Below, one piece after another: positions 11,870-62,734 of a stretch of DNA of 64,000 nucleotides. The number at the start of each line of letters is the position of its first letter. The first letter of the stretch is position 1. A program made the translations under genes and the position numbers. Below the pieces are notes generated by a model, which saw only the letters and a list, made by a program, of their open reading frames with translations, searched no databases and was not told where the DNA came from. This DNA comes from Burkholderiales bacterium (GTDB taxonomy: Bacteria > Pseudomonadota > Gammaproteobacteria > Burkholderiales > SG8-41): assembly GCA_030833315.1 (NCBI GenBank), contig JAURHM010000006.1:6277-70276 (forward strand), in the 5' to 3' direction.

Positions 11870-12597
11870 CGCAACATTTCAACGCGCTGGGCCAGCCGGT
11901 CGGATTTCCGCTGCCGGACTGGACAGCACCGCCGCGGCCGCCGCGCACAACACTGACCGGACGTTATTGCCGCGTCGAACCGCTGGATGCGCAACGTCAT
12001 CCCACCGAACTGCACACGGCAAACCGGCTTGATCCGAGCGGACGCGCATTCACCTATCTTGCAGCCGGACCTTTTGACAGCCTCGACAGCTACCTGAAGT
12101 GGATCAACACCAGCTGTCTCAGCCCTGATCCGTTGTTCCACGCCATCATCGACGGCGACAGCGGCAAGGCCTTGGGCGTCGCTGCCTATATGCGCATTGA
12201 TCCGGCCAACGGCGTGATCGAAGTCGGCCACCTCAATTTTTCACCGCTACTACAGCAGACCCGCGTCGCGACCGAAGCGATGCATCTGATGATGAAAAAC
12301 GCCTTCGCACTTGGCTACCGGCGTTACGAATGGAAATGCGACTCGCTGAACGCGCCGTCGCAGGCGGCGGCACGACGGCTGGGCTTTTCCTACGAGGGCC
12401 GCTTCATCCAGGCGATCACCTACAAGGGACGCAACCGCGACACCGACTGGTTCTCGATCACCGACCGCGAATGGCCTGCACTTCGCGCAGCTCATGAACA
12501 GTGGCTCGCGCCGGAGAATTTTGATGGTGAAGGCCGGCAGCGCCTCAGCCTGTCGGCACTGACCGCGCCGCTGCTGCGCGCCGCGGATAAACAATAA
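11866..12597 (+). CDS. GNAT acetyltransferase (RimJ/RimL, YdaF-like)
   Basis: N.LGQPVG..LPDW, LGYRRYEWKCDSLN.PS..AA.RLGF.YEG, KGRNRDT.W; GTGA overlap start. Confidence 0.88.
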   Translation: MTQHFNALGQPVGFPLPDWTAPPRPPRTTLTGRYCRVEPLDAQRHPTELHTANRLDPSGRAFTYLAAGPFDSLDSYLKWINTSCLSPDPLFHAIIDGDSGKALGVAAYMRIDPANGVIEVGHLNFSPLLQQTRVATEAMHLMMKNAFALGYRRYEWKCDSLNAPSQAAARRLGFSYEGRFIQAITYKGRNRDTDWFSITDREWPALRAAHEQWLAPENFDGEGRQRLSLSALTAPLLRAADKQ

Positions 12598-13641
12598 CTA
12601 TTTGTTTTTATTGTGTTTTTTTGAACGCGCCCGACTGAGCGCTTCATTCACAATACGCCGCAGCGCATCCCCCCAGGCAACACCGGCAAAACACTGGTTG
12701 TTGCCCATCGCGTGCGGGTGCAGATCCGGATTGGCGTTGGCCTCGAGAAACACCAACCGTCCGTCCGGCGTCAACCGGTAATCTATACGCCCGTAATCGC
12801 GCTGCTCAAGCGCATGGAAAATTGCACTGCTGACGGTTTCAATATCCCGCCGCAGATTGCCGGAGATTTTCGCGACACGCCAGCGGATGCGCCAGCGGCT
12901 GCGGTAAGCGCCGTCATTTTTCAGTTTATACGAGGCAAAGGTCGGTGCACCCGGACCGCGACGGCCAATGAACAGTTCAACCGCCGGCATCACATCCGGT
13001 TTGTTGCCAAGCAGGGCCACATACAGGTCGCGGCCTTCGATGAATTCCTCGCAGATCAGCGGCGCATGCACGCGCTTGCGCAACATGCGCACGCGCTGCA
13101 GCAGTTCGCGCTCGTTCTTCACCAGTGAATTGACGCGCACTTCGTCGGAACCGTCGCCGAACTGCGGCTTGATGATCAGCGGGTAAGGTACACGCGGATT
13201 GCGGATCGGGCCCGTCGGCGGAATCACGAAGTAACGCGGCACCGCCACGCCAAGGTCGGCAGCAATGTGTTTGGACAGCGCCTTGTCGCGCGCCAGTCGC
13301 AGGCCGCCGGGACCGGATCCCGTATACGGAATCTTCAGCAGATCGAGCAGGCCTGCAATGGACGCATCCATGCTGCGGTCACCATCGACGCATTCGGTCA
13401 GATTGAACACCAGCCGCGGCTTCAGCGCCCGCAGTTCGGCAATCGTGGCGTCGACACCGGCGACAAAAGGCAGCGCCGTGACCCGCAGGCCTTGACTGCG
13501 CAGTTCCGCCAGCAGATAGGCTTCAACGCTGCTGCGATCGGGAACATAAAGCCCGTTTTTGCGGCGGTCCACCGCCTCCGCATCGACCAGCAGCGCAATG
13601 TCGCAACGCACGGCTTCGGCTCGTTTTTGTTGTTGGGCCAT
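12598..13641 (-). CDS. D-Ala-D-Ala ligase-like ATP-grasp protein
   Basis: IPYTGS, DKALSK, IIKP..GDGS, EEFIEGR, YGRIDYRL, LEANANP. Confidence 0.82.
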   Translation of the reverse strand: MAQQQKRAEAVRCDIALLVDAEAVDRRKNGLYVPDRSSVEAYLLAELRSQGLRVTALPFVAGVDATIAELRALKPRLVFNLTECVDGDRSMDASIAGLLDLLKIPYTGSGPGGLRLARDKALSKHIAADLGVAVPRYFVIPPTGPIRNPRVPYPLIIKPQFGDGSDEVRVNSLVKNERELLQRVRMLRKRVHAPLICEEFIEGRDLYVALLGNKPDVMPAVELFIGRRGPGAPTFASYKLKNDGAYRSRWRIRWRVAKISGNLRRDIETVSSAIFHALEQRDYGRIDYRLTPDGRLVFLEANANPDLHPHAMGNNQCFAGVAWGDALRRIVNEALSRARSKKHNKNK

Positions 13642-13756
13642 GTCCCGATTTTAACCCCGGCGCCGGCACGTTGCGCCCGCCCCCCTGTCGCTGCTATCGT
13701 GCCCCCCATCCGCGGAGACCACTTCGTCTTTCGCAGCAACCACCGGAGGATAGACA

Positions 13757-14713
13757 ATGAAACTCGCAACCATCGCCTCAGCGATCCTGGCGACATTGCT
13801 GCTGTATGCCGGCAGCGCAGCTGCACAGGCCTGCCCCGAGAAAAACATCAACTACTGGCAGGCCTTTCCCGCCGGCGGCGAATCCGATATTTCGGCGCGG
13901 CACCAGCAGCTGGTACTGAAAAAACGCTGCCCCGGTATCGAAACCATCGTGCAGTACAAACCCGGTGCAGGAGGTGGCCTGATGTGGGCGCAGATCAACA
14001 ACATGCCCGCCGACGGCTTCAACGTGATCGGCGTCAACCTGCCGCATATCGTGCTGCAACCCTTCGAGGGCCAGGTGCAGTACAAGACAGACGATGTGAT
14101 GCCGGTCTACTGGTTCCATTACACGCCGGATGCGCTGGTGGTGCCCGCCGACAGCCCGATCAAATCCTTCCAGGACCTGGTCAAGGCCGCGAAGGCACAA
14201 CCCGGCAAGCTAACCCTCGCCGGCTCAGGCACCAACTCCGCCAACCATGCCGCACATGAAAAACTTAATCTGGTCGCCGGCGTGCAGACCACCTATGTGC
14301 CGTTCAAGGGCACCGGCGACATGACCACCGCCGTGCTCGGCGCGCATGTCACCGGGGCGATGTCGTATTCGGCCTTTGCCATCAACAACAAGGGCAAGGT
14401 TCGCGCGCTGGCGGTCGCGATGGACAAGCGTCACCCGCTGCTGCCCGACGTGCCGACCTTCAAGGAACTGGGCTTTGACTGGATCGACGGCGCCTACCGC
14501 GGCATCGGCATGCCTAAATCGACCACCCCGGATGCACGCAAGCGCATGTCGGACCTGTGGGCTGCGCTCAACAATGATCCGGAGATGAAGGAACTCGCCG
14601 CCAAAAGCGGATTCGAACTGGTCAATGTCGGCGTCGACAAGATGGAGCCCTTCATGAAAGACCGCATCCGCGCCTATACCGAAGTGGCCAAACGCATGGG
14701 GCTGACCAAATAA
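13757..14713 (+). CDS. Bug/TctC substrate-binding protein (divergent subgroup)
   Basis: FPAGGESD, KPGAGG, YVPFKGTG, PDVPTFKELG; RBS GGAGGA. Confidence 0.88.
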   Translation: MKLATIASAILATLLLYAGSAAAQACPEKNINYWQAFPAGGESDISARHQQLVLKKRCPGIETIVQYKPGAGGGLMWAQINNMPADGFNVIGVNLPHIVLQPFEGQVQYKTDDVMPVYWFHYTPDALVVPADSPIKSFQDLVKAAKAQPGKLTLAGSGTNSANHAAHEKLNLVAGVQTTYVPFKGTGDMTTAVLGAHVTGAMSYSAFAINNKGKVRALAVAMDKRHPLLPDVPTFKELGFDWIDGAYRGIGMPKSTTPDARKRMSDLWAALNNDPEMKELAAKSGFELVNVGVDKMEPFMKDRIRAYTEVAKRMGLTK

Positions 14714-14727
14714 GCAATACACCGCTC

Positions 14728-14763
14728 AATAAAAAACGGGGCCTGCAGGCCCCGTTTTTTATT
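14728..14763. terminator. Bidirectional intrinsic terminator
   Basis: Perfect palindrome AATAAAAAACGGGGCCTGCAGGCCCCGTTTTTTATT between convergent genes. Confidence 0.9.
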
Positions 14764-14777
14764 TCTGCGAACAGCTC

Positions 14778-17012
14778 TCAGGCAAACTTCACGCCGGCCT
14801 CGCTCATTGCCTGCTGCACCCGTCCCGGCAGCAACGGCTGCTGGCGCAAGCGCACACCGGTGAGCTGGTGGAAGGCATTGGCGATTGCCGACGGTACCAG
14901 CGGTGTCGCCATCTGGCCGGCGCCCGTCGGATGGTTGGGCGTCTGCACCAGCTTGATGTGGATGTTCGGGATGTCGCGCATCCGCGGCACGTGGTAATCG
15001 AAGAAATTCGACTGCTGCACGAGACCGCCGCTGACATCGATATGCTCGGTCAGCGCCAGACCGATACCGTAGACAATCGAACTCTCGGTCTGGGCAACAA
15101 TGTTGTCGGGCTGAATAGCGACCCCGGCATCAATCACGCACCAGAAATCATGCACGCGGATGCGGCCGTCCTTGTTCAGTGAGACTTCGGCAATACCCGC
15201 GAGCTGGGTGCCGCTGTAATCGAGATAGGCCACGCCAAGGCCGCGCCCCTCACGCTTGCGGCCCCATGCGGCCATGCGGGCAACCTCACGCAGCACGTCA
15301 CGTCCACGCTGTGCACGCGGCGTGCCCGCCAGCTGGCGAATGCGGAATTCAACCGGATCCACACCCAGCTTCGCCGCGACTTCGTCGATGAATACCTCGT
15401 TGGCAAAACTGTTCTGGCCGACACCAATGGCGCGCAGCGGCGCGGTGCGGATACCGGTGGGCTGCTGCAGACCTTCAGCCAGGCGATGAGGAATGTCATA
15501 AGTCGGCAGTTCGGTGCCGCGCATCGCGATATTGTCACGGCCCTGCGAAGCCTTGAAGCGAACCGGATCCATATAGGCCAGCGCCTCGTCGCTGACCACG
15601 CGATGGTGCCAGGCGACGATCTTGCCCTTGTCATCCACCGCTGCGCGGATGCGGTTCACGTATTGCGGACGGAAGCGGCCGTTCTTGACATCGTCCTCGC
15701 GCGTCCACAGCACTTTCACCGGCTTGCCGACGGCTTTGGACAGCAGCGCCGAATCGACCATGAACTCGAGGTCACGGTTGCCGCGACGGCCGAATCCACC
15801 GCCAAGCAGCATGCCGTTGAACTTGATCTTGTCCGCAGACAGGCCAAGCGCCGCAGCCACGGCATCCACGGCAATGGTCTGGCTTTGCGTGCCGCACCAG
15901 ATCTCGCAGCCGTCCTTGCTCACCGAGGCCACCGAGTTCAGCGGCTCCATCTGCGCATGATAGGCATAATCGGCGCGATACTCGCCTTCAATGACGTTCT
16001 GCGCCTTGCCCAGTTCGGGAACAGCCTGCCCGACGGTTTCCCAGGCCACGCCTTTTTTGCTGTCATCGCGGGCAATTTTCGTGAACGCTTCAAATCCGCT
16101 GCCACTGGAATGTTTCCAGCCGCGCGCCTCGGAGGACCAGGTCACTTTCAAAGCCTGCTTGGCCTTGAACGCCGCCCATGGCGATTCGGCAATCACGCCG
16201 ACACCGTATTGCAGCGGCACGATCTGCAACACGCCGGCTACGGCACGCGCCTCGCGGTCGTCGATCTGCACCGGCTGCGCGCGATCCACCGGTTCACGCA
16301 GGATGGCGCCGTAGACCATGCCCGGCACCTGCACGTCGATGCTGTATTGCGCCGATCCGTTGGTCTTGCCGGCAACATCGACCCGCGGCACATCTTTGCC
16401 GATCAGACGGAAATGCGCCTTGTCGAGCGCATCCAGCTGAACTTCAGGCGCCTGCGCCGGCACCTTGGCAAATGCTGCGATCTCGCCATACGACAGCCGG
16501 CGCCCCGACTTCGTATGCTCGGCATAACCGGGCCCGCTGACGACTTCCGTCAGCGGCACGCCCCAGCGCTGGGCTGCGTTATCGAGCAACACGTAGCGCA
16601 CCTGGGCGCCGAACTGGCGCAGATTGGTGAAGTAACCGGTGACGGTAGCGCTGCCCGCGGTGTACTGCAGGTAACGGAAGGCCGGATTGCCGTAGATCTG
16701 ATTGTTCGGCGGCGCCGCGACAATGCGCACCTTTGACCAGTCGGCATCCATTTCCTCGGCGACGATCAGCGGCAGCGAAGTCAGCGACCCCTGCCCCATT
16801 TCAGCCGCCGGCGACTGGATAACCACCGTGCCATCGGTGAATACCGTCACCCAGTTGTTGATTTTGCTGCTGCCGGTCGCCGCCTCCGCGGCGCCGACCA
16901 CCAGTTCCTGCAGTCCCGGCGACGCCACAGCGACACCGAAGGTCAGACCGGCAGCACCGGTCATGAAACGGCGGCGCGACGGATTCTTGATCATGGGGTT
17001 TTGTGCACTCAT
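14778..17012 (-). CDS. iorB: Molybdopterin-binding subunit, isoquinoline 1-oxidoreductase beta-like, Tat signal
   Basis: SRRRFM Tat motif, EMGQG, TAGS, HAQMEP, GGGFGRR, WTREDD; start set at MSAQNP. Confidence 0.82.
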   Translation of the reverse strand: MSAQNPMIKNPSRRRFMTGAAGLTFGVAVASPGLQELVVGAAEAATGSSKINNWVTVFTDGTVVIQSPAAEMGQGSLTSLPLIVAEEMDADWSKVRIVAAPPNNQIYGNPAFRYLQYTAGSATVTGYFTNLRQFGAQVRYVLLDNAAQRWGVPLTEVVSGPGYAEHTKSGRRLSYGEIAAFAKVPAQAPEVQLDALDKAHFRLIGKDVPRVDVAGKTNGSAQYSIDVQVPGMVYGAILREPVDRAQPVQIDDREARAVAGVLQIVPLQYGVGVIAESPWAAFKAKQALKVTWSSEARGWKHSSGSGFEAFTKIARDDSKKGVAWETVGQAVPELGKAQNVIEGEYRADYAYHAQMEPLNSVASVSKDGCEIWCGTQSQTIAVDAVAAALGLSADKIKFNGMLLGGGFGRRGNRDLEFMVDSALLSKAVGKPVKVLWTREDDVKNGRFRPQYVNRIRAAVDDKGKIVAWHHRVVSDEALAYMDPVRFKASQGRDNIAMRGTELPTYDIPHRLAEGLQQPTGIRTAPLRAIGVGQNSFANEVFIDEVAAKLGVDPVEFRIRQLAGTPRAQRGRDVLREVARMAAWGRKREGRGLGVAYLDYSGTQLAGIAEVSLNKDGRIRVHDFWCVIDAGVAIQPDNIVAQTESSIVYGIGLALTEHIDVSGGLVQQSNFFDYHVPRMRDIPNIHIKLVQTPNHPTGAGQMATPLVPSAIANAFHQLTGVRLRQQPLLPGRVQQAMSEAGVKFA

Positions 17013-17013
17013 C

Positions 17014-17481: not shown

Positions 17482-17649
17482 GACCCCCCCTTTGAGATTG
17501 GCTTTGCGTCCCTCGTTGCGCGCGTTCTGCGCCGCGCGCTGCGACGGTTTAGATGTTTAGATATTAGCCCAAACCTTGCTCCCCGAAACCCGCAGCTCGA
17601 CAGCGCCGCAGGTAATCCCCTGAACCTACATAAGTTATTGTTTTTATTA

Positions 17650-18852
17650 TTAAATATTTTGACCGGCGCGGAACAGCCCTCGTGGCGCGCGATGCAGCGG
17701 CTCGCAACCGTCGCGTGTGATGCGCATCAGCTCACCAACCTGCACGCCGGATCGTTTCGATTCATCCGCTTCGGTGGTTACCGGATTGGGTTGGACCACC
17801 ACGGTCATGTTTTCTTCCAGCGTCATCTGCGGCAAGGCGCGCCCGGCCATGCGGCTTTTCGTACCGATGATCGGCTGGAAATAGCCGCCACCGAAACCGT
17901 GCACCAGGTCATCACACACCGTGTAACCCTTTTGCTCGATCAGTGCGGTGGCGTCCATGATTTCCTGCATGGTCGTGCCATGGCGCAATACCTTGGTCAC
18001 CGCATCGAAGGTGGCTTCGGCCGTCGCATGCAGATCCGCATAACGCGGCGTCGGATCGGCATCAACGGTAAAGGTGCGCAGGATCTGCCCGGGATAATCC
18101 CACCAGAATGCCGACAGCTCGCAGAAAATGACATCGCCCGCCCGCACCTTGCGCGGCGAAGGATGCTGCGGCGGCACATAGATATGCGGCTGCGCCATCG
18201 ACGTCACGCCGATGTAATGGATCATCGTCGTGCCGCCGTGTTTGATATAGGCGCTCTCCACCAGCGCGCCGAGTTCACGTTCATCCATGCCCACGCGCGT
18301 GCCGGCCACCAGCGCGCGCAGTCCGGCGTCAGACAGCGCCGCACCGATGCGCAGCCAATCGATTTCCTCTTCCGATTTGCGCATGCGCAACTGGGTGTAG
18401 TCAGCATCCAGCAGCTTCACTTCGAAAGCCGCTTCAAGCTGGCGGCATTTGGACAGCACCAGCGGACCGATCAGACCGATACGTTTCGCGCCACGCCGTT
18501 TCAGCTCCTCGATGGTCAGCGCGATGCCCTGATGCTGCCCCCAGCGCACATCGACATCGCGGGCGATCTTGCGGCCCAGCGGAAAATGGTTGAACCACTC
18601 CATGTGCATGACCATGCGCTCACCGGGCTTGAACACGACATAGGCCTCGACCGTTCCGGGCCAGCCGGTCAGCCATTGCACGGCATTGCCGGCGCGGTGA
18701 TCGGTGACCACTAGCAGATGGTCACAGCAATGTTTTTCCATCGCTGCCGCCAATGCGGTCTGGCGTCTTACATATTCAGCATCCGAAAAATGCGGGTATT
18801 GCTGCTGCATCACTGCCTGCAGACGCGGCTCAACCTTCAACACTGCACTCAT
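17650..18852 (-). CDS. M24 (Xaa-Pro peptidase/creatinase) fold hydrolase with degenerate metal site
   Basis: KSEEEI..LR, GDVIFCELS....Y.GQILRTF, HGFG, VVQPN, VGEL. Confidence 0.8.
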   Translation of the reverse strand: MSAVLKVEPRLQAVMQQQYPHFSDAEYVRRQTALAAAMEKHCCDHLLVVTDHRAGNAVQWLTGWPGTVEAYVVFKPGERMVMHMEWFNHFPLGRKIARDVDVRWGQHQGIALTIEELKRRGAKRIGLIGPLVLSKCRQLEAAFEVKLLDADYTQLRMRKSEEEIDWLRIGAALSDAGLRALVAGTRVGMDERELGALVESAYIKHGGTTMIHYIGVTSMAQPHIYVPPQHPSPRKVRAGDVIFCELSAFWWDYPGQILRTFTVDADPTPRYADLHATAEATFDAVTKVLRHGTTMQEIMDATALIEQKGYTVCDDLVHGFGGGYFQPIIGTKSRMAGRALPQMTLEENMTVVVQPNPVTTEADESKRSGVQVGELMRITRDGCEPLHRAPRGLFRAGQNI

Positions 18853-18883
18853 TGCTTCTCCTGAATCGGGTAAGTGGAACAGA

Positions 18884-19885: not shown

Positions 19886-19895
19886 CTGCCGCTCC

Positions 19896-29703: not shown

Positions 29704-29756
29704 TAATATTTCTCCAGTATAAACAAATACTTATAAATTAACGCTGTGGCCGTACC

Positions 29757-30734: not shown

Positions 30735-30783
30735 GTGACACCTCCGTGGATTTGGTATTGGTAAGAACTTGTTATGAACGAAA

Positions 30784-33495: not shown

Positions 33496-33847
33496 GCCCC
33501 CGCCAATCCGTTTTCCAGCGCCCGAAATGGCTTGACAGCGTCGCAATTGCGGCATGTTGATATCTCACGCATCGCAACAGAACCAGGCCGCTACAAAAGT
33601 CGAACAGCACTGTCAATATCCGGGGTGCCATACAAATGGCACAAGGGGCAAACGAGTGCTAAGTGTTTGACGTAATTAGGCTTTTACGACGTTTTTTTGA
33701 CAGCATGCAAGCCTTTGTTTTTTATGAATAAATCGGCGCTTTCCCCTTGCGAAAATCCGTTCAAAATTTTTTTTCGCGGGTTCGGAGCGCGGTCCGCAAG
33801 GTATGCGCCGGGACCGCGCTCACCGTTCCGGTGCATGGCCCGAAAAA

Positions 33848-34637: not shown

Positions 34638-36443
34638 ATGCCGATCACCCTGCAGCTGCAGCTGAGCGAAGGGCCGTGGAATCCGGGGCTGCAATCGCAG
34701 ATCCCCGCCGATCTGCTGCCGTTGGCGACGATCTACCGGCCCGAATACGTACGCACCACGCTGCGCGAGGCGCGCGAACTTGCCGACCTCACCGGCCTGG
34801 CGATGGAAGAACTGGTGGTCTTCCGCCCCGAACGCCTGGTCGTGCATGAACTGCTCGCACTCGTCACCGCCGATTTCACGGTGGAAGACGGCCAGAAAAC
34901 CGAAGATCTCGGCATCAACTTCAGGCGCATGACCGACGCGCTGCTGGCGCGTCACATCGCGCCGCAGATGCCGCAGATTGTTGCCGCTTACGAAACCGTC
35001 CGCAGTCGCCTGCACGAAGCCGCAACCGCAGAGCTCGAACGCGGCCTCCACGAAGACATTGCCGCCGCCAAACCGGCGCGCGGCTTCTGGGCGCAGCTGT
35101 TCGGCAAACACAAAACCGCACCGGTCATTGATGAAGGTGAAACCACCGACGTGCGCGCAATCCGTCGCTGGGAAGCACAGTCACAGTCCGCTGCCGATCC
35201 GCTGGTTCGCGCCGCAGCTGCCGCACTGGCCCGCGTCGCCACCGCGATGCTCAACCGCCATGGCCGGCTGTGGCGCGACCGCGCGCTGATCGCCCGCGTC
35301 GCCACCGATCTCGCCTGCAATGAATACGGCAGCGAGGAAATCAGCCGGCTGATCGAGCCTTATGTGCAGCGCGGCGCCGACGCTGAAGGTTTCCGCCGCC
35401 TGCCGGTGCAGGCGCAGCCGGTGGTGATGAACACCAAGGGCGCCTCCGCCGCCGGTAAAAGCACATTACGCCCACTGCAGCGCGCGCTCGCCGCACGCAT
35501 CGGCGTCAGCTGGCAGGATTTCGCGCTGATCAGCCCGGATATTTTCCGCAAGTTCCTGCTCGACTATTCGACGCTGGGGCCGGCCTATAAATACGCCGGC
35601 TCCTTCAGCGGCCACGAACTGCAGATCGTCGATCACAAACTCGACCGCACGATGGCGCGCAAGGCCGAGCGCGGCCTGATGTCGCATCTGCTGATCGACC
35701 GTTTCCGCTTTGATACCTTCGCGCCGGCATCGGATGTCGCCGGCAGTAATCTGCTGACGCGTTTCGGCAGCCTCGTCTATCTGTTTTTCTTGATCACGCC
35801 GCCGGACGCCACCGTTGAGCGCGCTTGGTACCGCGGCCTCGAAGTCGGCCGCTACAAGGCTGTCGATGACCTGCTCGCGCACAACGTCGAAGCCTTCTCC
35901 GGCGTGCCCGAGGTGTTTTTCACCTGGGCGCTGGCCGCCGACAAGAAGGTGCATTACGAATTCCTCGACAACAGCGTCGCACTCGGCGAGACACCACGCA
36001 CCGTGGCCTTCGGCTGGAACGGCGAAATGCATGTACTCGATGTCGGCGGCATGCTCGACATCGAGCGTTACCGCAAAATCCATGTCGAAGCGCGCACGCC
36101 GTGCGAGGTCTACCCCGGTGCCGCCGAAATGACGCCGGAGAACAACACCCAGTTTCTCGCGCAGTGCATCCGCCGCCTGCCCATCGTCAATTTTGCCGAT
36201 CGCAGCAGCCAGCGCATCTGGCTGCGCATGGAACAGGGCAAGCCGGCGTGGTTCGATCCCGCCGCGCTGGCCCTCGCCATCACCGATCCCGAAACCCGCG
36301 CCGGCATCGCCGCGATTGCACCGGAAGCACTGAGCGGCCACAAGCTGCCGGAAGCCACCGCACGCATCCTCGACAGCGAGCGCCTGCACACACTGGGCAA
36401 CTGGGGCCTCGCATGCGAAGATGTTGAAAAAATTCCTGAATAA
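34638..36443 (+). CDS. P-loop protein with zeta-toxin-like kinase domain
   Basis: Walker A GASAAGKST, ISPDIFRK, TVERAWYRG...GRY; long helical N-terminal region. Confidence 0.65.
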   Translation: MPITLQLQLSEGPWNPGLQSQIPADLLPLATIYRPEYVRTTLREARELADLTGLAMEELVVFRPERLVVHELLALVTADFTVEDGQKTEDLGINFRRMTDALLARHIAPQMPQIVAAYETVRSRLHEAATAELERGLHEDIAAAKPARGFWAQLFGKHKTAPVIDEGETTDVRAIRRWEAQSQSAADPLVRAAAAALARVATAMLNRHGRLWRDRALIARVATDLACNEYGSEEISRLIEPYVQRGADAEGFRRLPVQAQPVVMNTKGASAAGKSTLRPLQRALAARIGVSWQDFALISPDIFRKFLLDYSTLGPAYKYAGSFSGHELQIVDHKLDRTMARKAERGLMSHLLIDRFRFDTFAPASDVAGSNLLTRFGSLVYLFFLITPPDATVERAWYRGLEVGRYKAVDDLLAHNVEAFSGVPEVFFTWALAADKKVHYEFLDNSVALGETPRTVAFGWNGEMHVLDVGGMLDIERYRKIHVEARTPCEVYPGAAEMTPENNTQFLAQCIRRLPIVNFADRSSQRIWLRMEQGKPAWFDPAALALAITDPETRAGIAAIAPEALSGHKLPEATARILDSERLHTLGNWGLACEDVEKIPE

Positions 36444-36455
36444 AAACATCGCCCT

Positions 36456-37634
36456 ATGAATATCCTGCTGCCCGGCGCCAATGGCGCCCTGACGACCTAC
36501 ACACTGCGCGGCCCCTGCGCCTTTGATGCCCCCACAGCGCCGTTCAACCGTGTCGCCTATGCCGCAGCGCATGTCGTCGCCGATCCGCGCGCCGCGATCA
36601 ATCCCTGGCAGCAGACCGCGATCGACTGGGACGCCACGCTCGCCTACCGCCATTACCTTTGGAGTCTCGGTTTCGGCGTCGCTGAAGCGATGGACACCGC
36701 ACAGCGCGGCATGGGCATGGACTGGAAGGATTCGCTGGAACTGATTCAGCGCTCAGCGGCAGCAGCGCGCGATGTACCCGGCGCACTGCTCGCCTCCGGC
36801 TGCGGCACCGACCAGCTCGCCCTCGAAGAAGCCAAAACCCTCGACGACGTGATCCGCGCCTATGAAGAACAGATGGCCGCGATCGAACGCGCCGGCGGAC
36901 GCCTGATCCTGATGGCCAGCCGCGCGCTGGTGCGCGTCGCGCGCAGCCCTGCCGATTACGAAAAGGTTTACGACCGCTTGCTGCGCCAGGCGCGCGAACC
37001 GGTGATCCTGCACTGGCTGGGCGGAATGTTCGACCCCGCACTGGAAGGTTACTGGGGCAGCCTCGAACTGCCGGGGGCGATCAACACCGCGCTGGGCGTG
37101 ATCAACGCCAATGCGGCCAAGGTCGACGGCATCAAGATGTCATTGCTCGACAAGGACATCGAAATCGCGATGCGCCGCCGCCTGCCCGCGGGCGTGCGCA
37201 TCTACACCGGCGACGATTTCAATTACGCCGAACTGATTGCCGGCGACGGTGAAGGTTCGCTGCCCAACCACGGTCACAGCGATGCACTGCTGGGCATTTT
37301 TGACACCATCGCGCCGGCCGCCAGCGCCGCACTCGGCAAACTCGCGCAAGGTGATACAGCCGGCTTCCACCGCATCCTCGAACCGACAGTGCCGCTGTCA
37401 CGCCATATGTTCCGAGCGCCGACCTGGCATTACAAAACCGGCGTGGTGTTCATGGCCTGGCTCAACGGCCACCAGGATCACTTCGTGATGGTGGGCGGCC
37501 AGCAGAGTGCACGGTCGCTGATGCACTTTGTTGAACTGTTCAAACTGGCCGATGCAGCAGGATTGTTGCTGAAACCGGAACTGGCGGTGGCGCGAATGAA
37601 GAAGCTACTGAAATTGCACGGCGTCGGTCAATAA
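36456..37634 (+). CDS. DUF993 / DHDPS-like TIM-barrel protein
   Basis: AAAHVVADP, VAEAMDTAQRGMG, LHWLG.MFDP, GIK.SLLD, YTGDDFNY. Confidence 0.88.
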   Translation: MNILLPGANGALTTYTLRGPCAFDAPTAPFNRVAYAAAHVVADPRAAINPWQQTAIDWDATLAYRHYLWSLGFGVAEAMDTAQRGMGMDWKDSLELIQRSAAAARDVPGALLASGCGTDQLALEEAKTLDDVIRAYEEQMAAIERAGGRLILMASRALVRVARSPADYEKVYDRLLRQAREPVILHWLGGMFDPALEGYWGSLELPGAINTALGVINANAAKVDGIKMSLLDKDIEIAMRRRLPAGVRIYTGDDFNYAELIAGDGEGSLPNHGHSDALLGIFDTIAPAASAALGKLAQGDTAGFHRILEPTVPLSRHMFRAPTWHYKTGVVFMAWLNGHQDHFVMVGGQQSARSLMHFVELFKLADAAGLLLKPELAVARMKKLLKLHGVGQ

Positions 37635-47814: not shown

Positions 47815-47918
47815 ATAAATTTACCAATAAAAACAAATAGTTATAAATAACCCGCCTTGCCGTTGCCGGCCTGCAGGCCTATACTGCGCTTCCCCTCAAC
47901 TGCCGTTCCGCACCCCTC

Positions 47919-48128
47919 ATGTCCGACCGCAACGAGACCGACGCCATCGAAGCACGCATCGCCGAGCTCAAGCTGGAGCATCGCGATCTCGATGACGTGA
48001 TCTTGCGGCTCACGCAAACGCCGGTGATCGATCAACTGCAGCTGCAGCGGATGAAAAAACGCAAGCTGATGGTCAAGGACCAGATCGCGCTGCTCGAGCG
48101 GCAACTGACGCCGGACATTCCCGCCTAA
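47919..48128 (+). CDS. DUF465/YdcH coiled-coil protein
   Basis: EHRDLD, RMKKRKL..KD.I, PDIPA. Confidence 0.88.
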   Translation: MSDRNETDAIEARIAELKLEHRDLDDVILRLTQTPVIDQLQLQRMKKRKLMVKDQIALLERQLTPDIPA

Positions 48129-49951: not shown

Positions 49952-50145
49952 ATGTATCAGTATCCTTTAAAACTCTAATATTTAATAAAAACAATAACTT
50001 GAGCCGATAGACCGGCACTGAAATCCCGATCAAATGGTTATAACAAACTGCTAAACTGCGTCGCCTCAAGAAATAAAGCCGTTCCTGCAAGCGCTTGCCA
50101 GCGGCAAGTGATTGAATCGCATTAACAACCCACGGGAGATTATTC

Positions 50146-50601
50146 ATGAAGCACGCTCTGATCACCGCACTCATCGGCACCTCGACGCTACTGGCCAGCG
50201 GCACCGCGTCCGCGCAAGCGAAACCGGAAGATGTCATCAAATACCGTAAGGCGCTGATGGTGATGCAGGCCAACAGTGTGCGTCCGCTCGCCGCAATGGC
50301 CAAAGGCCAGCGCCCCTACGACAAGGACATCGCCATCCGCAACGCCGCCATTCTGGAACTGACTGGCAAAATGATGATGGAAACCGTCGCTGCCGGCTCC
50401 GACAAAGGCGCCGAGACCCGCGCCAAGCCGGAAATCTGGTCGGACGCTGCCGGATATAAGAAAGTCTCGGACAACTACAGTGCTGAAGCCGCCAAACTTT
50501 CGGAAGCTGCAAAAGCCGGAAACGTTGACGCGCTCAAGGCCCAGATCGGCGGCGTCATCAAAGCCTGCGACTCCTGTCACGACGCGTATCGCAGCAAATA
50601 A
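50146..50601 (+). CDS. Cytochrome c' / c556 (class II)
   Basis: Signal peptide, AKPEIW, C-terminal CDSCH..YR. Confidence 0.92.
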   Translation: MKHALITALIGTSTLLASGTASAQAKPEDVIKYRKALMVMQANSVRPLAAMAKGQRPYDKDIAIRNAAILELTGKMMMETVAAGSDKGAETRAKPEIWSDAAGYKKVSDNYSAEAAKLSEAAKAGNVDALKAQIGGVIKACDSCHDAYRSK

Positions 50602-50622: not shown

Positions 50623-50650
50623 AAAAAAGCCGCCTCCGGGCGGCTTTTTT
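50623..50650. terminator. Bidirectional terminator
   Basis: AAAAAAGCCGCC-tccg-GGCGGCTTTTTT. Confidence 0.9.
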
Positions 50651-50668
50651 ATTGCCGGAGTTGCACCC

Positions 50669-51337
50669 TCAGATTCTGATCAGCGCCCAAACCCCTGCCG
50701 CACAGACCGCCAGCAATATCACAGCCAGCAACGCGCTGCGCATCGTCGCCGGCGCAGTACCCGCAGGCAGGTGCTTGCATCCGGTAAACATCGGCTTGAT
50801 CAGATTCTCCGATTTATAGAACAGGTAAAACAGCACCGCGCTGATGTGCACACCGATCAGCGCCAGCAACAAATTGAAGTTGTATTTGTGGATGGTCGTC
50901 AGCCAGTCACTTAGCTCCTTGGTGACATGCTTATAGAGCGGACCTTCAGTCAGTATGTCGTCATTGGAAAACAGCCCGGTGCCCGCCTGCACCAGAACGC
51001 AGAGCAGGATCAGCACGACACTGATTCCGCCCAGCGGATTATGTCCGGCGAACTTCGCAGCGGTACGCGACGGCAAGGTGCGGATATAGGCAATGACGGC
51101 GCCGGGGCCGTAAATGAAACTGCTGAAACGCGCATGAGTACTGCCGACAAAACCCCAAATCACGCGGAACAGCACGAGCGCGAGCACGGCATACCCGGAA
51201 TACAGATGCCATTCCATCCAGCCCATCTCGCCGGACAGCCAAGAGAATGCAATCAGCAGCACCAGCGTCCAGTGGAAAAACCGTACCGGAATATCCCAGA
51301 CCGGGGTTGCGCCGTTGTTGTGTTGCGTTTCTGGCAT
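50669..51337 (-). CDS. Cytochrome b (Ni/Fe-hydrogenase b-type family)
   Basis: VWD.P.R.FHW, WH...GY, GHNPLG, H/H heme ligands, NL..PM.TG. Confidence 0.9.
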   Translation of the reverse strand: MPETQHNNGATPVWDIPVRFFHWTLVLLIAFSWLSGEMGWMEWHLYSGYAVLALVLFRVIWGFVGSTHARFSSFIYGPGAVIAYIRTLPSRTAAKFAGHNPLGGISVVLILLCVLVQAGTGLFSNDDILTEGPLYKHVTKELSDWLTTIHKYNFNLLLALIGVHISAVLFYLFYKSENLIKPMFTGCKHLPAGTAPATMRSALLAVILLAVCAAGVWALIRI

Positions 51338-54323: not shown

Positions 54324-55817
54324 CTATTGCGCCGGCAGCTTGCTGAAGGACACGTGCGCCAGCAGTTCATTGACCGAAACGTGCAGCACATCGGCGAAAG
54401 GCTGCGGCCAGACGCCCATCACCAGCACGAGCACGGCGAGGACGCCCAGCACCAGGAACTCGCGGGCGTTGAGGTCCTGCAGTTCATCGACATGGGCATT
54501 GGCCACTGCACCGAAAATCACCCGCTTGTACATCCACAGCGTATAGGCGGCGCCGAAGATCAGCGTGATCGCGGCAGCAAAGGCAAACCAGAAATTCACC
54601 TGCATCGCGCCCATGATCACCAGGAATTCGCCGACAAAACCGCTGGTGCCCGGAAGGCCGGCATTGGCCATCGAGAAGAACATGAACAGCGCGGCGAACA
54701 CCGGCATCCTGTTGGCGACGCCGCCGTAATCGGCAATCAGCCGCGAATGCATGCGGTCATACAGCACGCCGACGCAGAGGAACATGGCGCCGGAAATGAA
54801 GCCGTGCGAAATCATCTGGATGATCGCGCCTTCCATGCCCTGCGCGTTGAACAGGAAAGTGCCCAGCGTGACGAAGCCCATGTGCGAGATCGACGAATAG
54901 GCGATCAGCTTTTTCATGTCGGTCTGCACCAGCGCGACAAGGCCGATGTAGACCACGGCGATCAGCGACAGGCCGATGACAATCGGCGCCAGCAGGTGAC
55001 TGGCATCAGGCACGATCGGCAGCGACAGCCGCAGGAAGCCATAACCGCCCAGCTTCAGCATCACCGCGGCCAGCACCACGGAGCCGCCGGTAGGCGCTTC
55101 GACGTGGGCGTCGGGCAGCCAGGTGTGCACCGGCCACATCGGCACCTTGACTGCAAATGCCATAAAAAATGCAATAAAAACAGATACTTGCAAAACAAGC
55201 GGCAGCTGCGTCTGGTAGAAATCAAACAGGCTGAAACTGCCGCCGGCGGAGAAATACAGGTAAATCAGCGCAACCAGTGACAGCAGCGAACCCATCAGCG
55301 TGTAGAGGAAGAACTTGACCGCCGCATAAACACGGTTAGGTCCGCCCCAGACACCGATGATGATGAACATCGGGATCAGCGTCGCCTCAAAGAACACATA
55401 GAACAGCAGCGCGTCGAGCGAGGAGAACACGCCGTTCATCAGGCCCGACAGGAACAGGAAGGCCGCCATGTACTGCGACACACGCGATTCAATGACCTGC
55501 CAGCCCGCCGCCACCACCAGCACCGTGGTCAGGCTGTTGAGCAGAATCAACAACAGCGAAATACCGTCGATGCCGATATGGTAGTTGGCGTTAAGCGTGT
55601 CGATCCAGGTACGCATTTCGACGAACTGGAAGCCACCCTGCTGCAGATCGAAGCCGGTGTAGAGCGGTATCGTCACCGCGAAACCGATCAGCGCACCGAT
55701 CAGCGCGATCACCCGCGCGGCCTGGGCATTGCGGTCGCCACCGGTCAGCAATACCGCCACGCCGGCGATGATCGGCGCCCAGATGGCGAGGCTCAGTAGT
55801 GGTAATCCCTGCATCAT
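54324..55817 (-). CDS. nuoM: NADH-quinone oxidoreductase subunit M
   Basis: [29 protein letters not shown]. Confidence 0.96.
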
Positions 55818-55836
55818 GAGGTCTTTTTCTTCAATT

Positions 55837-57870
<2,034 letters not shown>

Positions 57871-57877
57871 GTGCGGC

Positions 57878-58183
57878 TCAGCCCTTCAACTGATCGAGGT
57901 CTTCGACATTGATGGTGCGCAGATTGCGGAACAGCACCACCAGGATCGCCAGCCCGATCGCCGATTCGGCAGCAGCGACGGTCAGGATGAAAAACACGAA
58001 CACCTGGCCGGCGGTATCGCCGAGAAAATGGGAGAACGCGACGAAATTGGTATTCACCGCCAGCAGCATCAGCTCGATCGCCATCAGGATCACGATGATG
58101 TTCTTGCGGTTGAGGAAAATTCCGATCACGGAGATCGCGAACAGGATCGCGCCGAGGACCAGGTAATGGGACAGTGAAATCAT
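57878..58183 (-). CDS. nuoK: NADH-quinone oxidoreductase subunit K
   Basis: [18 protein letters not shown]. Confidence 0.96.
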
Positions 58184-58185
58184 GT

Positions 58186-58794: not shown

Positions 58795-58806
58795 TATGTC
58801 TTGGCT

Positions 58807-59301
58807 TTATCGATACTTGGCGTCGGCCGCACGATCCTGCGCAATCTGTTCTTCGTAAGCATCACCGATCGCCAGCAGCATCGGCTTGGTATAAATCAGG
58901 TCGCCGCGTTTTTCACCGTGGTATTCGTAGATCCGCGTCTCGACGATCGAATCCACCGGGCACGATTCCTCGCAGAAGCCGCAGAAAATGCACTTGGTCA
59001 GGTCGATGTCGTAACGCGTGGTGCGGCGCGTGCCGTCTTCACGCTGCTCGGACTCGATGGTGATCGCCAGCGCCGGGCACACCGCCTCGCACAGTTTGCA
59101 GGCGATGCAGCGTTCTTCGCCGTTGGGATAACGGCGCAGTGCGTGCAGGCCGCGGAAACGCGGGCTCTGCGGCGCCTTCTCTTCCGGGTATTCGACAGTG
59201 ATCTTGCGCGCGAACAGGTAACGGCCGGTGACGGCCATGCCCTTCAGCAGCTCGAACAGAAGGAAGGTATTGAAGAATTTGCGGATGCTCTGGATCATCA
59301 T
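58807..59301 (-). CDS. nuoI: NADH-quinone oxidoreductase subunit I
   Basis: [24 protein letters not shown]; ATGA overlap with nuoH. Confidence 0.96.
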
Positions 59302-60368
59302 TTCCACCATATCCACAGCGGGGTTTGCATCCACGCGCCGAGCACGACGATCCACACCAGCGTCACCGGAATGAACACCTTCCAGCCAAGACGCATGATC
59401 TGGTCATAGCGATAACGCGGGAATGTCGCGCGGAACCACAGGAACAGCGACGCCACAAAGAAAATCTTGGCAAACAGCCAGCCGAAGCCACCGGTGCCGA
59501 TCAGCCCCCAGGACGCCGGGAACGGCGACAGCCAGCCGCCGAGGAACATGATCGCAGTCAGCGTCGAGATCAGGATCATCGCCGAGTATTCCGCCAGCGA
59601 AAACACGGCGAAGGTCATACCCGAATATTCGACATGGAAGCCGACAATTTCCGATTCACCTTCGGCAACGTCAAACGGCGCGCGGTTGGTCTCGGCTACG
59701 CCGGCAATCAGATAGGTAATGAACAGCGGGAACAGCGGCAGCCAAAACCACCCAAATGCGCCAGCCGAATTTTGCTGCGCCTTGACGATCTCGGCCAGGT
59801 TCAGGCTCTGCGAGGCCATCAGCACGCCGACCAGCGAGAAGCCCATCGCGATTTCGTAGGACACGATCTGCGCCGCGGACCGCAGGCTGCCGAGGAAGGC
59901 GTATTTGGAGTTCGATGCCCAGCCGGCGATGATGATGCCGTAGACCCCCAGCGAGGTCATCGCCATCAGATACAGCAGTCCGGCATCGATGTTCGACAGG
60001 ATCAGTTCCGGCGAGAACGGAATCACCGCCCAGGCCGCCAATGCCGGCCCCAGCGCCATCACCGGTGCCAGCACAAACAGGATTTTGTTCGAACCGGTCG
60101 GGATGATCACTTCCTTGACCAGCAGCTTCAGGCCGTCGGCGATCGGCTGCGCCCAGCCGCCGAGCCAGCGGATACCGAAGAAGGTCACGCGGTTCGGGCC
60201 CTTGCGGATCTGCATATAGCCGATCAGCTTGCGCTCCCACAACGTCAGGTAGGCCACGCACAGCATCAGCGGCGCAACGATCAGCATGATCTTGACCAGC
60301 GTCCACACCACCGGCCACAAGGGACCGAGCAGCGCTTGCGGATAAGCGAGCAGCGAATCGAGCATCAT
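59298..60368 (-). CDS. nuoH: NADH-quinone oxidoreductase subunit H
   Basis: [32 protein letters not shown]. Confidence 0.96.
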
Positions 60369-62734
60369 GCGCTCGCTTTCTGCACCTGGGCGACGCGTTC
60401 CAGCAGCAGCGGCGCATCAGCCGCGCCCAGCGTCGCCGTTTCACCGCGCGCTGCGGCGATACGCACGCATTCGGCGGGCAGTTTGTCATCAATGCCGTAC
60501 GGCAGCACCGCGGCGCCACCGTCCTGCACCACACGCAGTGCATCACCGTCACGCAGGCCCAGCTTGTCGGCAAGCGCGCGGTTCATCGTCGCGACCGGCG
60601 GCAGCGCATCACGCGTCTGCTGCAGGCTCGGCGCACGGCGTGCCAGCGCATCAGCGGCATGGATCGGCGTTTCAGCGATCCGCGAGAGGCCGGCAACCGT
60701 ATTCGGCAGTGCACTGATAGTAACGCTCAAGTTATTGTTTTTATTAAATATTTCTGATTTTCCGTGGAGCGCTTCACGCTGCGCATCTTCGGCGCTGTCA
60801 TGCTCGAAGCCGGACAGGCCCAGCAGATTGCCCAGCACGCGCAGCACTTTCCACGCCGGACGGGTTTCACCGAGCGGCTTCACCACGCCGGCAAAAGTCT
60901 GCACTCGGCCTTCGGTGCTGATAAAAGTGCCCGCGGTTTCGGTAAACGGTGCAATCGGCAACAGCACGTTGGCGTATTCCGTCGCGCCATGCTGGAAGGG
61001 GCTCAGCGCCACCACCAGTTCCGCCTGCTTCATCGCGGTAATCGCCTGACGCGGATTGTGCATATCCAGTTCAGGTTCGACGCCAAGCAGCAGATAGGCT
61101 TTCAGCGGCGACTCGATCATCTGCAGCGCATTGATGCCGATGGTCTTGCCAGTCGGCACGCAGCCGGCGACATAACCACCGACGCTATTGGCCGCCGCAC
61201 CGAGCACGCCAAAATTACAAGTGATCACAGTGGCCAAAGCCTGAGCCAGCGCCTGCAGCGTGGCCGCAGCAGCATGCTGTTCGGCGAAGTTGCCGAGGAA
61301 CACGCCGGCCTTCTGGCCACCAATCAGGCTGGCAGCAATGCGTTTGGCCGCGTCATCCACGGTAACGCCGGCAACGGCGCTGCGAACGGCTTCAGGAATC
61401 GCCACGTTTTTCAGTTCAGCCGCAGCCTTCACCACCTGCGCCAGAACCTGCGGCAGCAGCGCGGGAGCCACAATGGCCTTGTTCGCCACGCGCATCAGCA
61501 GATCGTCATCAACAGCGTGGATGATATTAAGTTCGGTAGCTTTCTTGGTCGACTGACGCAAACGGTGCGCCAGCAGCGGATGATCCTTGCGCAGCGTCGA
61601 GCCGATCACCAGCACCCGATCCAGTTGCGCGAAATCAGTTATAGACATGCCCAGCCAGGGCACACCGGCGCGTTTACCGTCAGCGCTGAATTCAGCCTGA
61701 CGCAGGCGGAAATCGACATTGCCCGAACCCAGGCCGCGCACCAGCTTCTGCAGCAAGTGCATTTCTTCGAGCGTCTGGTGCGGCGTCGCCAGTGCGCCGA
61801 TCGCGGCGGCACCGTGTGCATCCTTGATGCGTTTGAGTTCGGCGGCGACAAACTCCAGCGCCACCGGCCACTCCACGTCCCGCCAGACGCCGTCACTCTT
61901 GACCATCGGCTTGGCGAGGCGTTTATCGGAATTCAGCGCTTCGTAGGAGAAGCGGTCCTTGTCCGAGATCCAGCATTCGTTAACGGCGTCGTTTTCTCGC
62001 GGCAGCGTGCGCATCACGCGGTTCTGTTTGACCTGCACCGTCAGGTTGGAACCGAGGCCGCAGTGCGGGCTCACGGTGGGACGGCGCGTCAACTCCCAGG
62101 TGCGGGCGCTGTAGCGGAAGGGTTTCGACGTCAGCGCACCGACCGGACACAGGTCAATGGCATTTCCCGAGAGTTCCGAATCGACGGTCTTGCCGACGAA
62201 AGTGATGATTTCCGAATGTTCGCCGCGGCCGATCATGCCGAGTTCCATGATGCCGGCGATTTCCTGACCGAAGCGGACACAGCGCGTACAGTGGATGCAA
62301 CGCGTCATGTCAGTCGAGATCAGCGGGCCGAGATTCTTGTTGGCGACGACGCGCTTGTCTTCCTGGTAGCGCGACTCGCTGCCGCCGTAACCCACCGCCA
62401 GATCCTGCAGTTGGCATTCACCGCCCTGATCGCAGATCGGGCAATCGAGCGGATGGTTGATCAGCAGGAATTCCATGACGCCCTTCTGGGCAGTCACTGC
62501 GGCATCCGAATGCGTCCACACTTTCATGCCGTTGGTAACCGGCGTCGCGCAGGCAGGCAGCGGCTTCGGCGCCTTCTCGACCTGCACCAGGCACATGCGG
62601 CAGTTGGCGGCGATCGACAGCTTCTTGTGATAACAGAAGTGCGGCACGAAAGTGCCGGCCTTGTTGGCAGCATCCATGATTGTGCTGCCTTCGGGCACTT
62701 CCATCAGCTTGCCGTCGAGTTCGATTTCGAGCAT
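60365..62734 (-). CDS. nuoG: NADH-quinone oxidoreductase subunit G
   Basis: FCYH..L...[28 protein letters not shown]. Confidence 0.96.

Follow-up and report, generated by a model that had tools for sequence, protein, structure and literature searches.

Why does the chromosome of a Burkholderiales bacterium repeat the same long AT-rich word every few kilobases, even inside protein-coding genes? The question is raised by a 64,000-nucleotide stretch of contig JAURHM010000006.1 (assembly GCA_030833315.1, positions 6,277 to 70,276 of the forward strand), which we refer to as the window and which corresponds to positions 6277-70276 of contig C66 of genome G000 in our dataset. The G000 assembly is a draft of 3,095,756 bp in 105 contigs with 60.0% GC, and its genus consists of uncultured freshwater-type Burkholderiales. 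The answer that we consider probable, judging from the sequence of the copies, is that they are high-affinity sites for integration host factor (IHF, the IhfA/IhfB heterodimer) with an architectural role that extends across the genome.

A dispersed 38-bp motif

A sequence-only reading of the window had reported eight copies of an 18-bp AT-rich word and had judged them too frequent to be a product of chance. All eight were recovered at the coordinates and on the strands reported, namely 12595(+), 17631(+), 29716(-), 33708(+), 47826(-), 49984(-), 55173(-) and 60728(+). Recurrence beyond chance is borne out by the pattern YAASTWWTTGTTTTTATT, which matched the window seven times with up to two mismatches and did not match any of 100 dinucleotide-preserving shuffles. 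The copy at 33708 has too many mismatches to be included among these seven, yet it scores 26.4 with the position weight matrix (PWM) described below.

The 11-mer core TTGTTTTTATT occurs 74 times in the 3.1 Mb genome, in every case within one shared wider motif. Conserved columns extend from -16 to +21 around the core, so that the motif is about 38 bp long and the 18-bp unit was too short; the consensus is roughly GAAAWTTnATAAsTAWTTGTTTTTATTGAWWWTTTTW. The motif is not palindromic (the best correlation of the PWM with its own reverse complement is 0.43, compared with a direct-shift baseline of 0.47).

A PWM scored against genome composition drifted to generic AT-rich DNA, with 2767 matches against 2429 in the control after three rounds, and was dropped. 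Its replacement was scored against an AT-rich background, and the genome reversed but not complemented was used as the control. The replacement identified 342 sites in G000 at a threshold of 12 (three in the control) and 266 at a threshold of 16 (none in the control), which confirms the genome-wide enrichment that had been predicted. Selection of the site set by PWM inflates its apparent conservation. Genes were called with a crude in-house caller (2857 genes covering 87% of the G000 genome). In the window the PWM identified nine sites, the eight copies above and a weak one at 36428:

12586 to 12623 (+): 38-bp IHF-type site, PWM score 28.4, at the 3' end of a D-Ala-D-Ala-ligase-like gene (12598-13641, -)
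17622 to 17659 (+): 38-bp IHF-type site, score 23.8, between the genes of a 2Fe-2S subunit and an M24 peptidase, each on the minus strand
29705 to 29742 (-): 38-bp IHF-type site, score 18.5, between an M24 peptidase gene and a TctC gene, kept in the related genome G011
33699 to 33736 (+): 38-bp IHF-type site, score 26.4, downstream of a MarC-family gene
36428 to 36465 (-): weak or doubtful site, score 14.7, across the junction of two co-oriented genes
47815 to 47852 (-): 38-bp IHF-type site, score 30.7, in a divergent spacer
49973 to 50010 (-): 38-bp IHF-type site, score 18.5, in the tandem spacer between an RF-1-domain gene and a cytochrome c' gene
55162 to 55199 (-): site inside a Proton_antipo_M gene at the nuoM position, score 23.9, the coding strand being the T-rich one
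60719 to 60756 (+): site inside nuoG, score 25.4, the coding strand being the A-rich one (..EIFNKNNNL..), after the Molybdopterin domain

Two weaker copies had also been proposed. The one near 36438 corresponds to the weak site in this list, and nothing near 30762 scores above 0. The GC content of about 63% that had been assumed was too high for the genome as a whole (0.600), while the window lies at about 0.59-0.63 outside a low-GC island. The naming of the two site-bearing genes held for nuoG, as the open reading frame (ORF) at 60365-62734(-) has the Fer2_4, NADH-G_4Fe-4S_3, Fer4_Nqo3 and Molybdopterin domains of a NuoG-type protein. It held in part for nuoM, where ORF 54324-55817(-) is Proton_antipo_M according to Pfam and the nuoM label comes from gene order. 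The genes flanking the window sites belong to unrelated families.

Match to the recognition signature of IHF

A specific IHF site, as described in excerpts of two papers (PMC1874591, bioRxiv 10.1101/382655), consists of a WATCAA hexamer, a TTR element 4 bp 3' of it, and two ApA steps 9 bp apart at which prolines intercalate. According to the same excerpts, the whole site spans 34-35 bp, and in some cases its other half contains an A-tract of 4-6 bp.

We compared the 342-site set with this description. Position -7 is a pyrimidine in 340/342 sites, -6 is A in 340 and -5 is A in 310, followed after four bases by TTG (T at 0 in 275, T at +1 in 342 and G at +2 in 342), a triplet that is partly forced by PWM selection. 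Position +3 is T in 239 sites and A in 98, and T occupies +4 in 330 and +5 in 336. A second TTG lies at +9 to +11 (T in 215, T in 256 and G in 175), and beyond it a T-tract spans +15 to +19, with A or T at +15 and +16 and T at +17 in 283 sites and at +18 in 246. The YAA-N4-TTG[A/T]TT core is the reverse complement of WATCAA-N4-TTR. On the opposite strand the sites read AA[A/T]CAA-N4-TTR; another CAA precedes this by 9 bp, and the A-tract lies further out.

All four elements of an IHF site are thus found: the WATCAA hexamer (as its complement TTGATW, exact in about 29% of sites and otherwise one position off), the TTR element (here YAA, 4 bp 5' of the TTG), two kink steps 9 bp apart (TT at 0/+1 and TT at +9/+10), and an A-tract in the other half of a site of ~35 bp. 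The G000 sites depart from the consensus in one respect only, as about 70% of them have T instead of A at a single position. The exact consensus YAANNNNTTGATW is present in 137 copies, compared with 11 in the reversed control, and 63 of the 137 fall within the PWM set. TTGATT forms are frequent among the sites listed for G011, a second genome of the genus, and dominant among those listed for G098, a member of the second motif-rich lineage introduced below. The offset of the A-tract matches that of the lambda H' site to within about 1 bp.

Both IHF subunits are encoded in G000. The ihfB gene, beside an rpsA-like gene, scores 156 bits (NCBIfam equivalog cut-off 115), and the ihfA gene, beside a pheT-like gene, scores 166 bits (cut-off 111). 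A lineage-specific, high-affinity IHF site had been named as one of two options by the sequence-only reading, and the exact TTGATT in about 29% of G000 sites and in the main forms of G011 and of the second lineage favours that option.

Two motif-rich lineages and their HU-family genes

An exact 26-mer of the motif was searched for with one genome per species. Among the matches listed (80 of 121 stretches) were metagenome-assembled genomes (MAGs) of uncultured Burkholderiales, Betaproteobacteria, Nitrosomonadales and Proteobacteria, some entries labelled Bordetella, and one Bryobacteraceae contig. A looser pattern was scanned over 121 genomes representing 61 families of the order, with the following results for the two motif-rich lineages and a sister genus (related genomes in these and later comparisons are not independent samples):

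G000, own genus (g1): 249 matches, 6 in the reversed control
G011, own genus (g1): 421 matches, 1 in the reversed control
G085, sister genus in the same family: 4 matches, 0 in the reversed control
G031, second lineage (f8/g8): 450 matches, 9 in the reversed control
G098, second lineage (f8/g8): 585 matches, 11 in the reversed control
G148, second lineage (f8/g8): 473 matches, 10 in the reversed control

The remaining genomes were near the control or in modest excess of it (48 versus 4 at most; G056 had 3 versus 0), and the expanded motif family is present in only 2/61 sampled families. In the second lineage, which has ~53% GC, the consensus is gTAACTAwTTGATTATAwTgAATAATTT and contains the exact IHF core. 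Only 7/30 of its sites lie in long open frames, compared with 533/600 random positions. The two lineages use distinct dialects, TAAGTATTTGTTTTTATT in g1 and TAACTATTTGATTATATT in g8, and their consensus sequences differ at -4, +3 and +6.

The two lineages also stand out in their HU-family genes. G000 has exactly two PF00216 genes, ihfA and ihfB, and no HU-type gene was found in it. Within its genus, 22/24 genomes have at most two PF00216 matches, the exceptions being G016 with three and G012 with four (8% contamination). In other families at least three were found in 15/16 genomes, and the exception, G031, belongs to the second motif-rich lineage. Typing with NCBIfam models assigned IHF-alpha and IHF-beta only to G000, G031 and G085, whereas in G098 they are joined by one divergent HU-like gene (113 bits, below the cut-off of 157) and G067 has two HU-like genes. 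Across all 121 genomes, at most two PF00216 genes were counted only in G000, G011, G085, G031, G148, G047, G051, G078 and G100, three of which are <90% complete. These counts suggest that both motif-rich lineages are largely HU-less, which is rare in the order. HU loss and motif expansion are associated over about two independent events, and the link may not be causal. A strict version, in which HU loss explains the motif, is weakened by G085, which has IHF only and four matches, and by G098, which has an HU-like gene and 585.

Expansion in so few families, although IHF is universal, could instead mean that another lineage-restricted DNA-binding protein, such as a nucleoid protein or a domesticated recombinase, reads the 38-bp word, and that the likeness to IHF sites comes down to AT-richness and bendability. 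Such a reader would also account for the columns conserved beyond the IHF consensus (T at -3, TATTGA at +7 to +12 and GAAA at -16 to -13) and for the difference between dialects. However, every position specified by IHF is conserved, +3 toggles only between T and the canonical A, the conserved length equals the IHF footprint, and the motif lacks the dyad symmetry expected for most dimeric helix-turn-helix proteins. We regard a separate reader as unlikely, and the IHF assignment as the better fit.

Spacing along the chromosome

The sites are spread along the chromosome more evenly than by chance. Successive sites on the same contig (n=255) are separated by 7.8 kb on average with a coefficient of variation (CV) of 0.60, compared with 0.99±0.06 (minimum 0.80) when positions on these contigs were drawn uniformly 500 times, and gaps of <2 kb number 18 where 65±6.5 are expected. 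The over-dispersion is retained when intergenic sites only are compared with random intergenic spacers (CV 0.665 versus 0.94±0.06, minimum 0.78; 11 gaps of <2 kb versus 35.7±5.5). Every one of the 55 contigs of at least 20 kb has at least one site, at a density of 1.1±0.4 per 10 kb.

Similar values were obtained in relatives with an IUPAC pattern. In G011, on three contigs of at least 250-340 kb, CV was 0.67 versus 0.99±0.10 (n=89), with 4 gaps of <2 kb versus 17.1±3.7. In G098, CV was 0.69 versus 0.94±0.09 (n=82), with 3 gaps of <1 kb versus 14.8±3.1.

Intragenic sites may fill long gaps between intergenic ones, although the data are only suggestive. Within long gaps between intergenic sites they are placed centrally (relative distance to the nearer end 0.313 versus 0.25; n=24, Kolmogorov-Smirnov p=0.054), and the gaps that hold one average 17.3 kb compared with 7.95 kb for the others, where length bias alone predicts 13.6 kb.

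A local example of spacing is seen at 51304 to ~52566 of the window, where G011, G023 and G018 carry ~6 kb extra, each with its own IHF-type site, and the local spacing is near 6 kb.

Over-dispersed spacing, equal use of both strands, frozen synonymous sites in intragenic copies and more information than is needed would also be displayed by a DNA-uptake sequence (DUS) or uptake signal sequence (USS), which labels self DNA in natural transformation and builds up through biased uptake, in which case the likeness to an IHF site would be a coincidence or reflect a shared need for bendable DNA. Neisseriaceae sit in the same order in GTDB, which counts in favour of this explanation, as do the lineage dialects, since dialects of DUS are described in excerpts of PMC3630211. 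ComEC and secretin genes were found in all five genomes checked, but these genes are common in most proteobacteria, the E. coli control included. At 249-585 matches of the looser pattern per 2.3-3.7 Mb, the motif is 5-20 times below the density of DUS and short of the thousands of copies (about 1 per kb) that characterise them, and with 2/255 spacings of <100 bp the sites do not form inverted terminator pairs. Both dialects fit all four IHF elements, for which we estimate a chance of roughly 1-2% in an AT-rich motif, and sites lie 24-57 bp upstream of 3/7 sigma-54 promoters (see below). Furthermore, the intragenic share is alike at 53% GC (7/30) and at 60% GC (71/342), which is unexpected if codon constraint alone limits spread. 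We rank uptake below the IHF explanation because the sites are sparser, lack inverted pairs and keep the IHF-specified positions in both dialects, and we consider it quite unlikely.

Placement relative to genes and promoters

Most sites (271/342, 79%) lie outside called genes, close to gene ends (the median distance is 11 bp to the preceding stop codon and 27 bp to the following start), and in 100/342 sites a called stop codon falls within the motif. By spacer type, 39 sites fall in 52 kb of convergent, 38 in 79 kb of divergent and 188 in 213 kb of tandem sequence. Half of the tandem sites are oriented with the adjacent genes (94) and half against them (94). A promoter, an UP element or a gene-specific operator is ruled out for the motif as a whole by this equal orientation and by the presence of sites in convergent spacers. 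The same observations, together with the failure of an Rfam search to detect any RNA family in the window, rule out an RNA element. A terminator or a single regulon is ruled out by placement, orientation and the heterogeneous families of the flanking genes.

The sequence-only reading had inferred a non-polar site that is not a gene-specific operator, and both parts hold: the strand of a site is independent of the sign of the local GC skew (69/86 and 76/89, Fisher p=0.82), orientation is equal as given above, and promoter-bearing spacers are not preferred. Strand use is also balanced in G011 (213 forward and 208 reverse). A polar motif of the type of Chi or the FtsK-orienting polar sequences (KOPS) was rejected, as no strand bias follows GC skew.

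Of the 71 sites that fall within called genes, 50 present their A-rich strand as the coding one and 21 their T-rich strand, a ratio that depends on the crude gene calls. The bias fits the idea that Asn/Lys loops, as in nuoG, are tolerated more easily than Phe/Leu/Ile membrane segments, as in nuoM.

Some sites do occupy positions that are familiar from IHF-dependent regulation. The rpoN gene is present in G000, and we searched intergenic sequence for sigma-54-type promoters with a gene downstream, allowing at most one mismatch to the consensus (TGGTAC-N5-TTGC type). In this small sample of seven, three have a site 24-57 bp upstream and one has a site on the downstream side. The three promoters with an upstream IHF-type site are:

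C35, about 5268-5400 (-)
C72, about 4525-4610 (-)
C81, about 4866-4976 (+)

N_methyl (type IV pilin-like) genes follow two of these promoters. The other lies ahead of an SBP_bac_5 gene, and a GCAC-N7-GTGC dyad is located farther upstream of it. Enhancer, IHF site and sigma-54 promoter in this order form the classical IHF arrangement. With scores of 13-19 these three sites are among the weaker members of the family, which suggests that ordinary IHF sites grade into the uniform, high-scoring ones.

These positions, along with a site that ends 4 bp upstream of a conserved -35 box in the window, are what would be expected if the whole set were a large regulon of ordinary gene-specific sites for IHF or another regulator, with regular spacing as a by-product of operon structure. 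As an account of the set this is improbable. Orientation is evenly split, convergent spacers hold as many sites as divergent ones, and a median of 27 bp to the next start is too short for a promoter. Sites also lie inside nuoG and nuoM, the flanking genes are functionally heterogeneous, and the over-dispersion holds against random intergenic spacers. The simplest account is that most sites are kept for their chromosomal position rather than for the neighbouring gene.

Conservation within the genus

The motif is present throughout the genus, where a check in relatives had been suggested. A strict 18-mer pattern gave 6-79 copies in each of the 24/24 other genomes of the genus, and the reversed pattern gave 0 in these and in all 41 genomes scanned. 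We then compared orthologous loci, counting only those at which the flanking anchors were found. The site at 12586 is present in 24/24 loci with the right-hand anchor (the window's own locus included), 22 of which score at least 17, while the left-hand neighbours vary. The site at 47815 is present in 25/25 loci with both anchors, and the site at 60719, inside nuoG, in 27/27. The site in the nuoM-position gene was found at the orthologous place in G011, G023, G018 and G007, and so was the nuoG site. In G011, where aligned segments are 72-85% identical, 8/9 window sites keep their place and orientation. Segments found only in relatives carry sites of their own.

The nuoG copy points to selection on DNA and not on protein alone. 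The core is identical in 26/26 extracted orthologues, and the third positions of its GAA, AAT, AAA and AAC codons are invariant. By comparison, third-position conservation is 0.38-1.00 (~0.7 on average) in upstream codons that are equally conserved, and the codons just downstream vary freely. Invariant synonymous positions of this kind suggest selection at the DNA level.

Turnover was observed at 49973. At 17 loci with both anchors, the site is clear (at least 18) in ten, weak (10.6) in one and absent from six. The spacers measure 209 bp with the motif and 217 bp without it, which suggests that sites come and go by substitution rather than insertion. A miniature mobile repeat of the repetitive extragenic palindromic (REP), repetitive IHF-binding palindromic (RIP) or miniature inverted-repeat transposable element type, spread by transposition, would explain the high copy number, the near-identical 11-25-bp cores and the mostly intergenic location, but is very improbable, given that sites evidently arise in place and repel rather than cluster, have no terminal inverted repeats or hairpin (self-complementarity 0.43 versus a baseline of 0.47), and keep their positions between species that are 70-90% identical without insertion polymorphism at the 24/24, 25/25 and 27/27 loci above.

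Individual sites and neighbouring features of the window

At 12586, the D-Ala-D-Ala-ligase-like gene (12598-13641, -) converges with a GNAT gene (11836-12597, +). In several relatives (loci L268-L270 and L272), a hairpin-like inverted repeat, GGATTCCGG...CCGGAATGA, adjoins the orthologous site where the window has the end of the GNAT gene; it may be a REP-like element or a terminator. The site at 17622 keeps its place and orientation in G011. At the place orthologous to 33699, G011 has a weaker site (14.9), and its match near the doubtful site at 36428 scores 11.7 on the opposite strand.

The site at 47815..47852 ends 4 bp upstream of the -35 box of a putative sigma-70-like promoter, which is conserved across the aligned orthologous spacers:

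47857 to 47885 (+): promoter-like TTGCCG-N17-TATACT element, predicted from its sequence to be the promoter of the DUF465 gene at 47919

Downstream of the site at 49973, the leader of the cytochrome c' gene (start at 50146; leader at about 50080-50145) contains a conserved -10-like box, ctgcTAAACTgcg, and after it a GGAATAAAG...GCAAGCGTTTGCC block that is conserved genus-wide, including in species without the upstream IHF-type site, and that may be a leader or an operator. At 50623-50650, where the cytochrome c' gene and its neighbour converge, AAAAAAGCCGCC-TCCG-GGCGGCTTTTTT forms a hairpin that is a bidirectional intrinsic terminator. The short element at 50623-50663 has matches elsewhere in relatives, but it is an ordinary terminator that is single-copy in G000, and the matches are similar terminators.

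The 5.4-kb stretch at 4623-10062 has low GC (0.49-0.56) and no motif site. The syntenic region of G011 has about 0.7 kb in its place, and a strong site (score 28) lies exactly at the junction. The stretch has the look of an island that was inserted next to a former site or on top of it.

A proposed role in chromosome architecture

We infer that IHF binds the sites, given their sequence, and that chromosome architecture is their purpose. In this scheme each 38-bp site would provide the IHF core, a pair of CAA/TTG kink steps separated by 9 bp and, on the opposite arm, an A/T-tract, and the IhfA/IhfB heterodimer would wrap it into a U-turn. About 340 sites in G000 and 420-590 in relatives would be held by selection at fixed places every 5-9 kb. 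They would avoid one another and be placed without regard to gene direction or promoters, and where a long operon offers no spacer the site would be written into coding sequence. The sharp bends, or the anchors of plectonemes or loops, would organise the nucleoid of these largely HU-less lineages, while a minority of weaker members would perform ordinary IHF work, for example between an enhancer and a sigma-54 promoter.

Several observations weigh against this scheme. The assignment to IHF is based on resemblance to a consensus, and the commonest form in G000 departs from WATCAA at one position (AAACAA). Information amounts to ~37 bits against the genome background (20-26 against AT-richer backgrounds) where 14 are needed, a figure that selection of the sites inflates, and the dialects are fixed by lineage at positions that IHF is not known to read. 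Excess information and dialects are more typical of molecular drive or a second reader. IHF alpha and beta are nearly identical by eye in genomes with and without the expansion, which suggests that IHF alone does not account for an expansion confined to two families. The link to HU is imperfect, as G078, probably G051 and the above-mentioned G085 are HU-less without clear expansion, while G098 shows the reverse. The sigma-54 sample is small, the gene caller is crude and the assembly is a draft in 105 contigs.

A more far-reaching proposal is that, in two mostly HU-less Burkholderiales lineages, nucleoid architecture has been hard-wired as a lattice of IHF U-turn sites every 5-9 kb. We put this forward as a tentative possibility and hold it to be doubtful in its full form. 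The lattice spacing would be about the size of a supercoil domain, selection on it would freeze synonymous codons in nuoG and nuoM, and the dialects would have arisen independently.

If IHF does bind the sites, these genomes would offer a natural experiment on the role of specific IHF sites outside promoters and on sequence-encoded loop or supercoil domains. They would also be a genomic counterpart to a plectoneme-pinning model, in which, according to excerpts of PMC9519438, IHF pins plectonemes and divides DNA into topological domains. Should the uptake explanation be true, a DUS-like system would for the first time be known from outside Neisseriaceae and Pasteurellaceae. The motif can also serve in practice to bin contigs and to recognise foreign islands in these lineages, which are represented by MAGs only.

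Comparison with known systems

A full-text literature search, at the level of listings and abstracts, found no genome-wide, evenly spaced, genus-conserved set of near-identical IHF-type sites, and the core word itself, when looked for as text, was matched by unrelated primers and viral sequences only.

The general interpretation offered by the sequence-only reading, a genome-wide and non-polar site for a nucleoid or chromosome-organising protein, is supported overall, but its analogy with matS, SlmA and Noc sites fits less well. The sites matS (read by MatP), SBS (SlmA), NBS (Noc) and parS (ParB) are likewise sequence-specific, non-polar and read by nucleoid organisers, a likeness in kind. They are short palindromes and regionally confined, whereas the present motif is asymmetric, without dyad symmetry, extends over 38 bp and occurs on each of the 55 contigs of at least 20 kb. 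A consensus for matS is listed in the excerpts of PMC6907758.

DUS of Neisseriaceae and USS of Pasteurellaceae share with the motif the existence of dialects, equal use of both strands, intragenic copies and excess information. USS are also evenly spaced. They differ in being 5-20 times denser (1900-5918 DUS per genome according to excerpts of PMC3630211), in forming inverted-pair terminators, and in that the sequence of the motif is that of the IHF consensus.

The RIP elements of E. coli, or bacterial interspersed mosaic elements of class 1 (BIME-1), are dispersed, mostly intergenic and present in hundreds of copies, as is the motif. RIP elements carry an IHF site, and IHF binding is predicted here. 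Unlike these elements, the motif has no flanking REP palindromes, no dyad symmetry and no sign of mobility, and it has copies inside genes. BIMEs have been proposed as supercoil-domain barriers in E. coli, as stated in excerpts of PMC6907758.

A further comparison is with the IHF sites of E. coli and phage lambda of the H' type (WATCAANNNNTTR plus an A-tract), with which the motif has all four elements in common, at the right spacings and within about 35 bp. Such sites are textbook objects. In E. coli, <10% of IHF motifs lie upstream of operons, according to excerpts of PMC3333857. Unlike the E. coli sites, those described here are far more uniform (74 identical 11-mers), have a main form with T for A in TTGAT, are over-dispersed at intervals of 5-9 kb, keep their positions across a genus, and belong to an expansion seen in 2/61 families.

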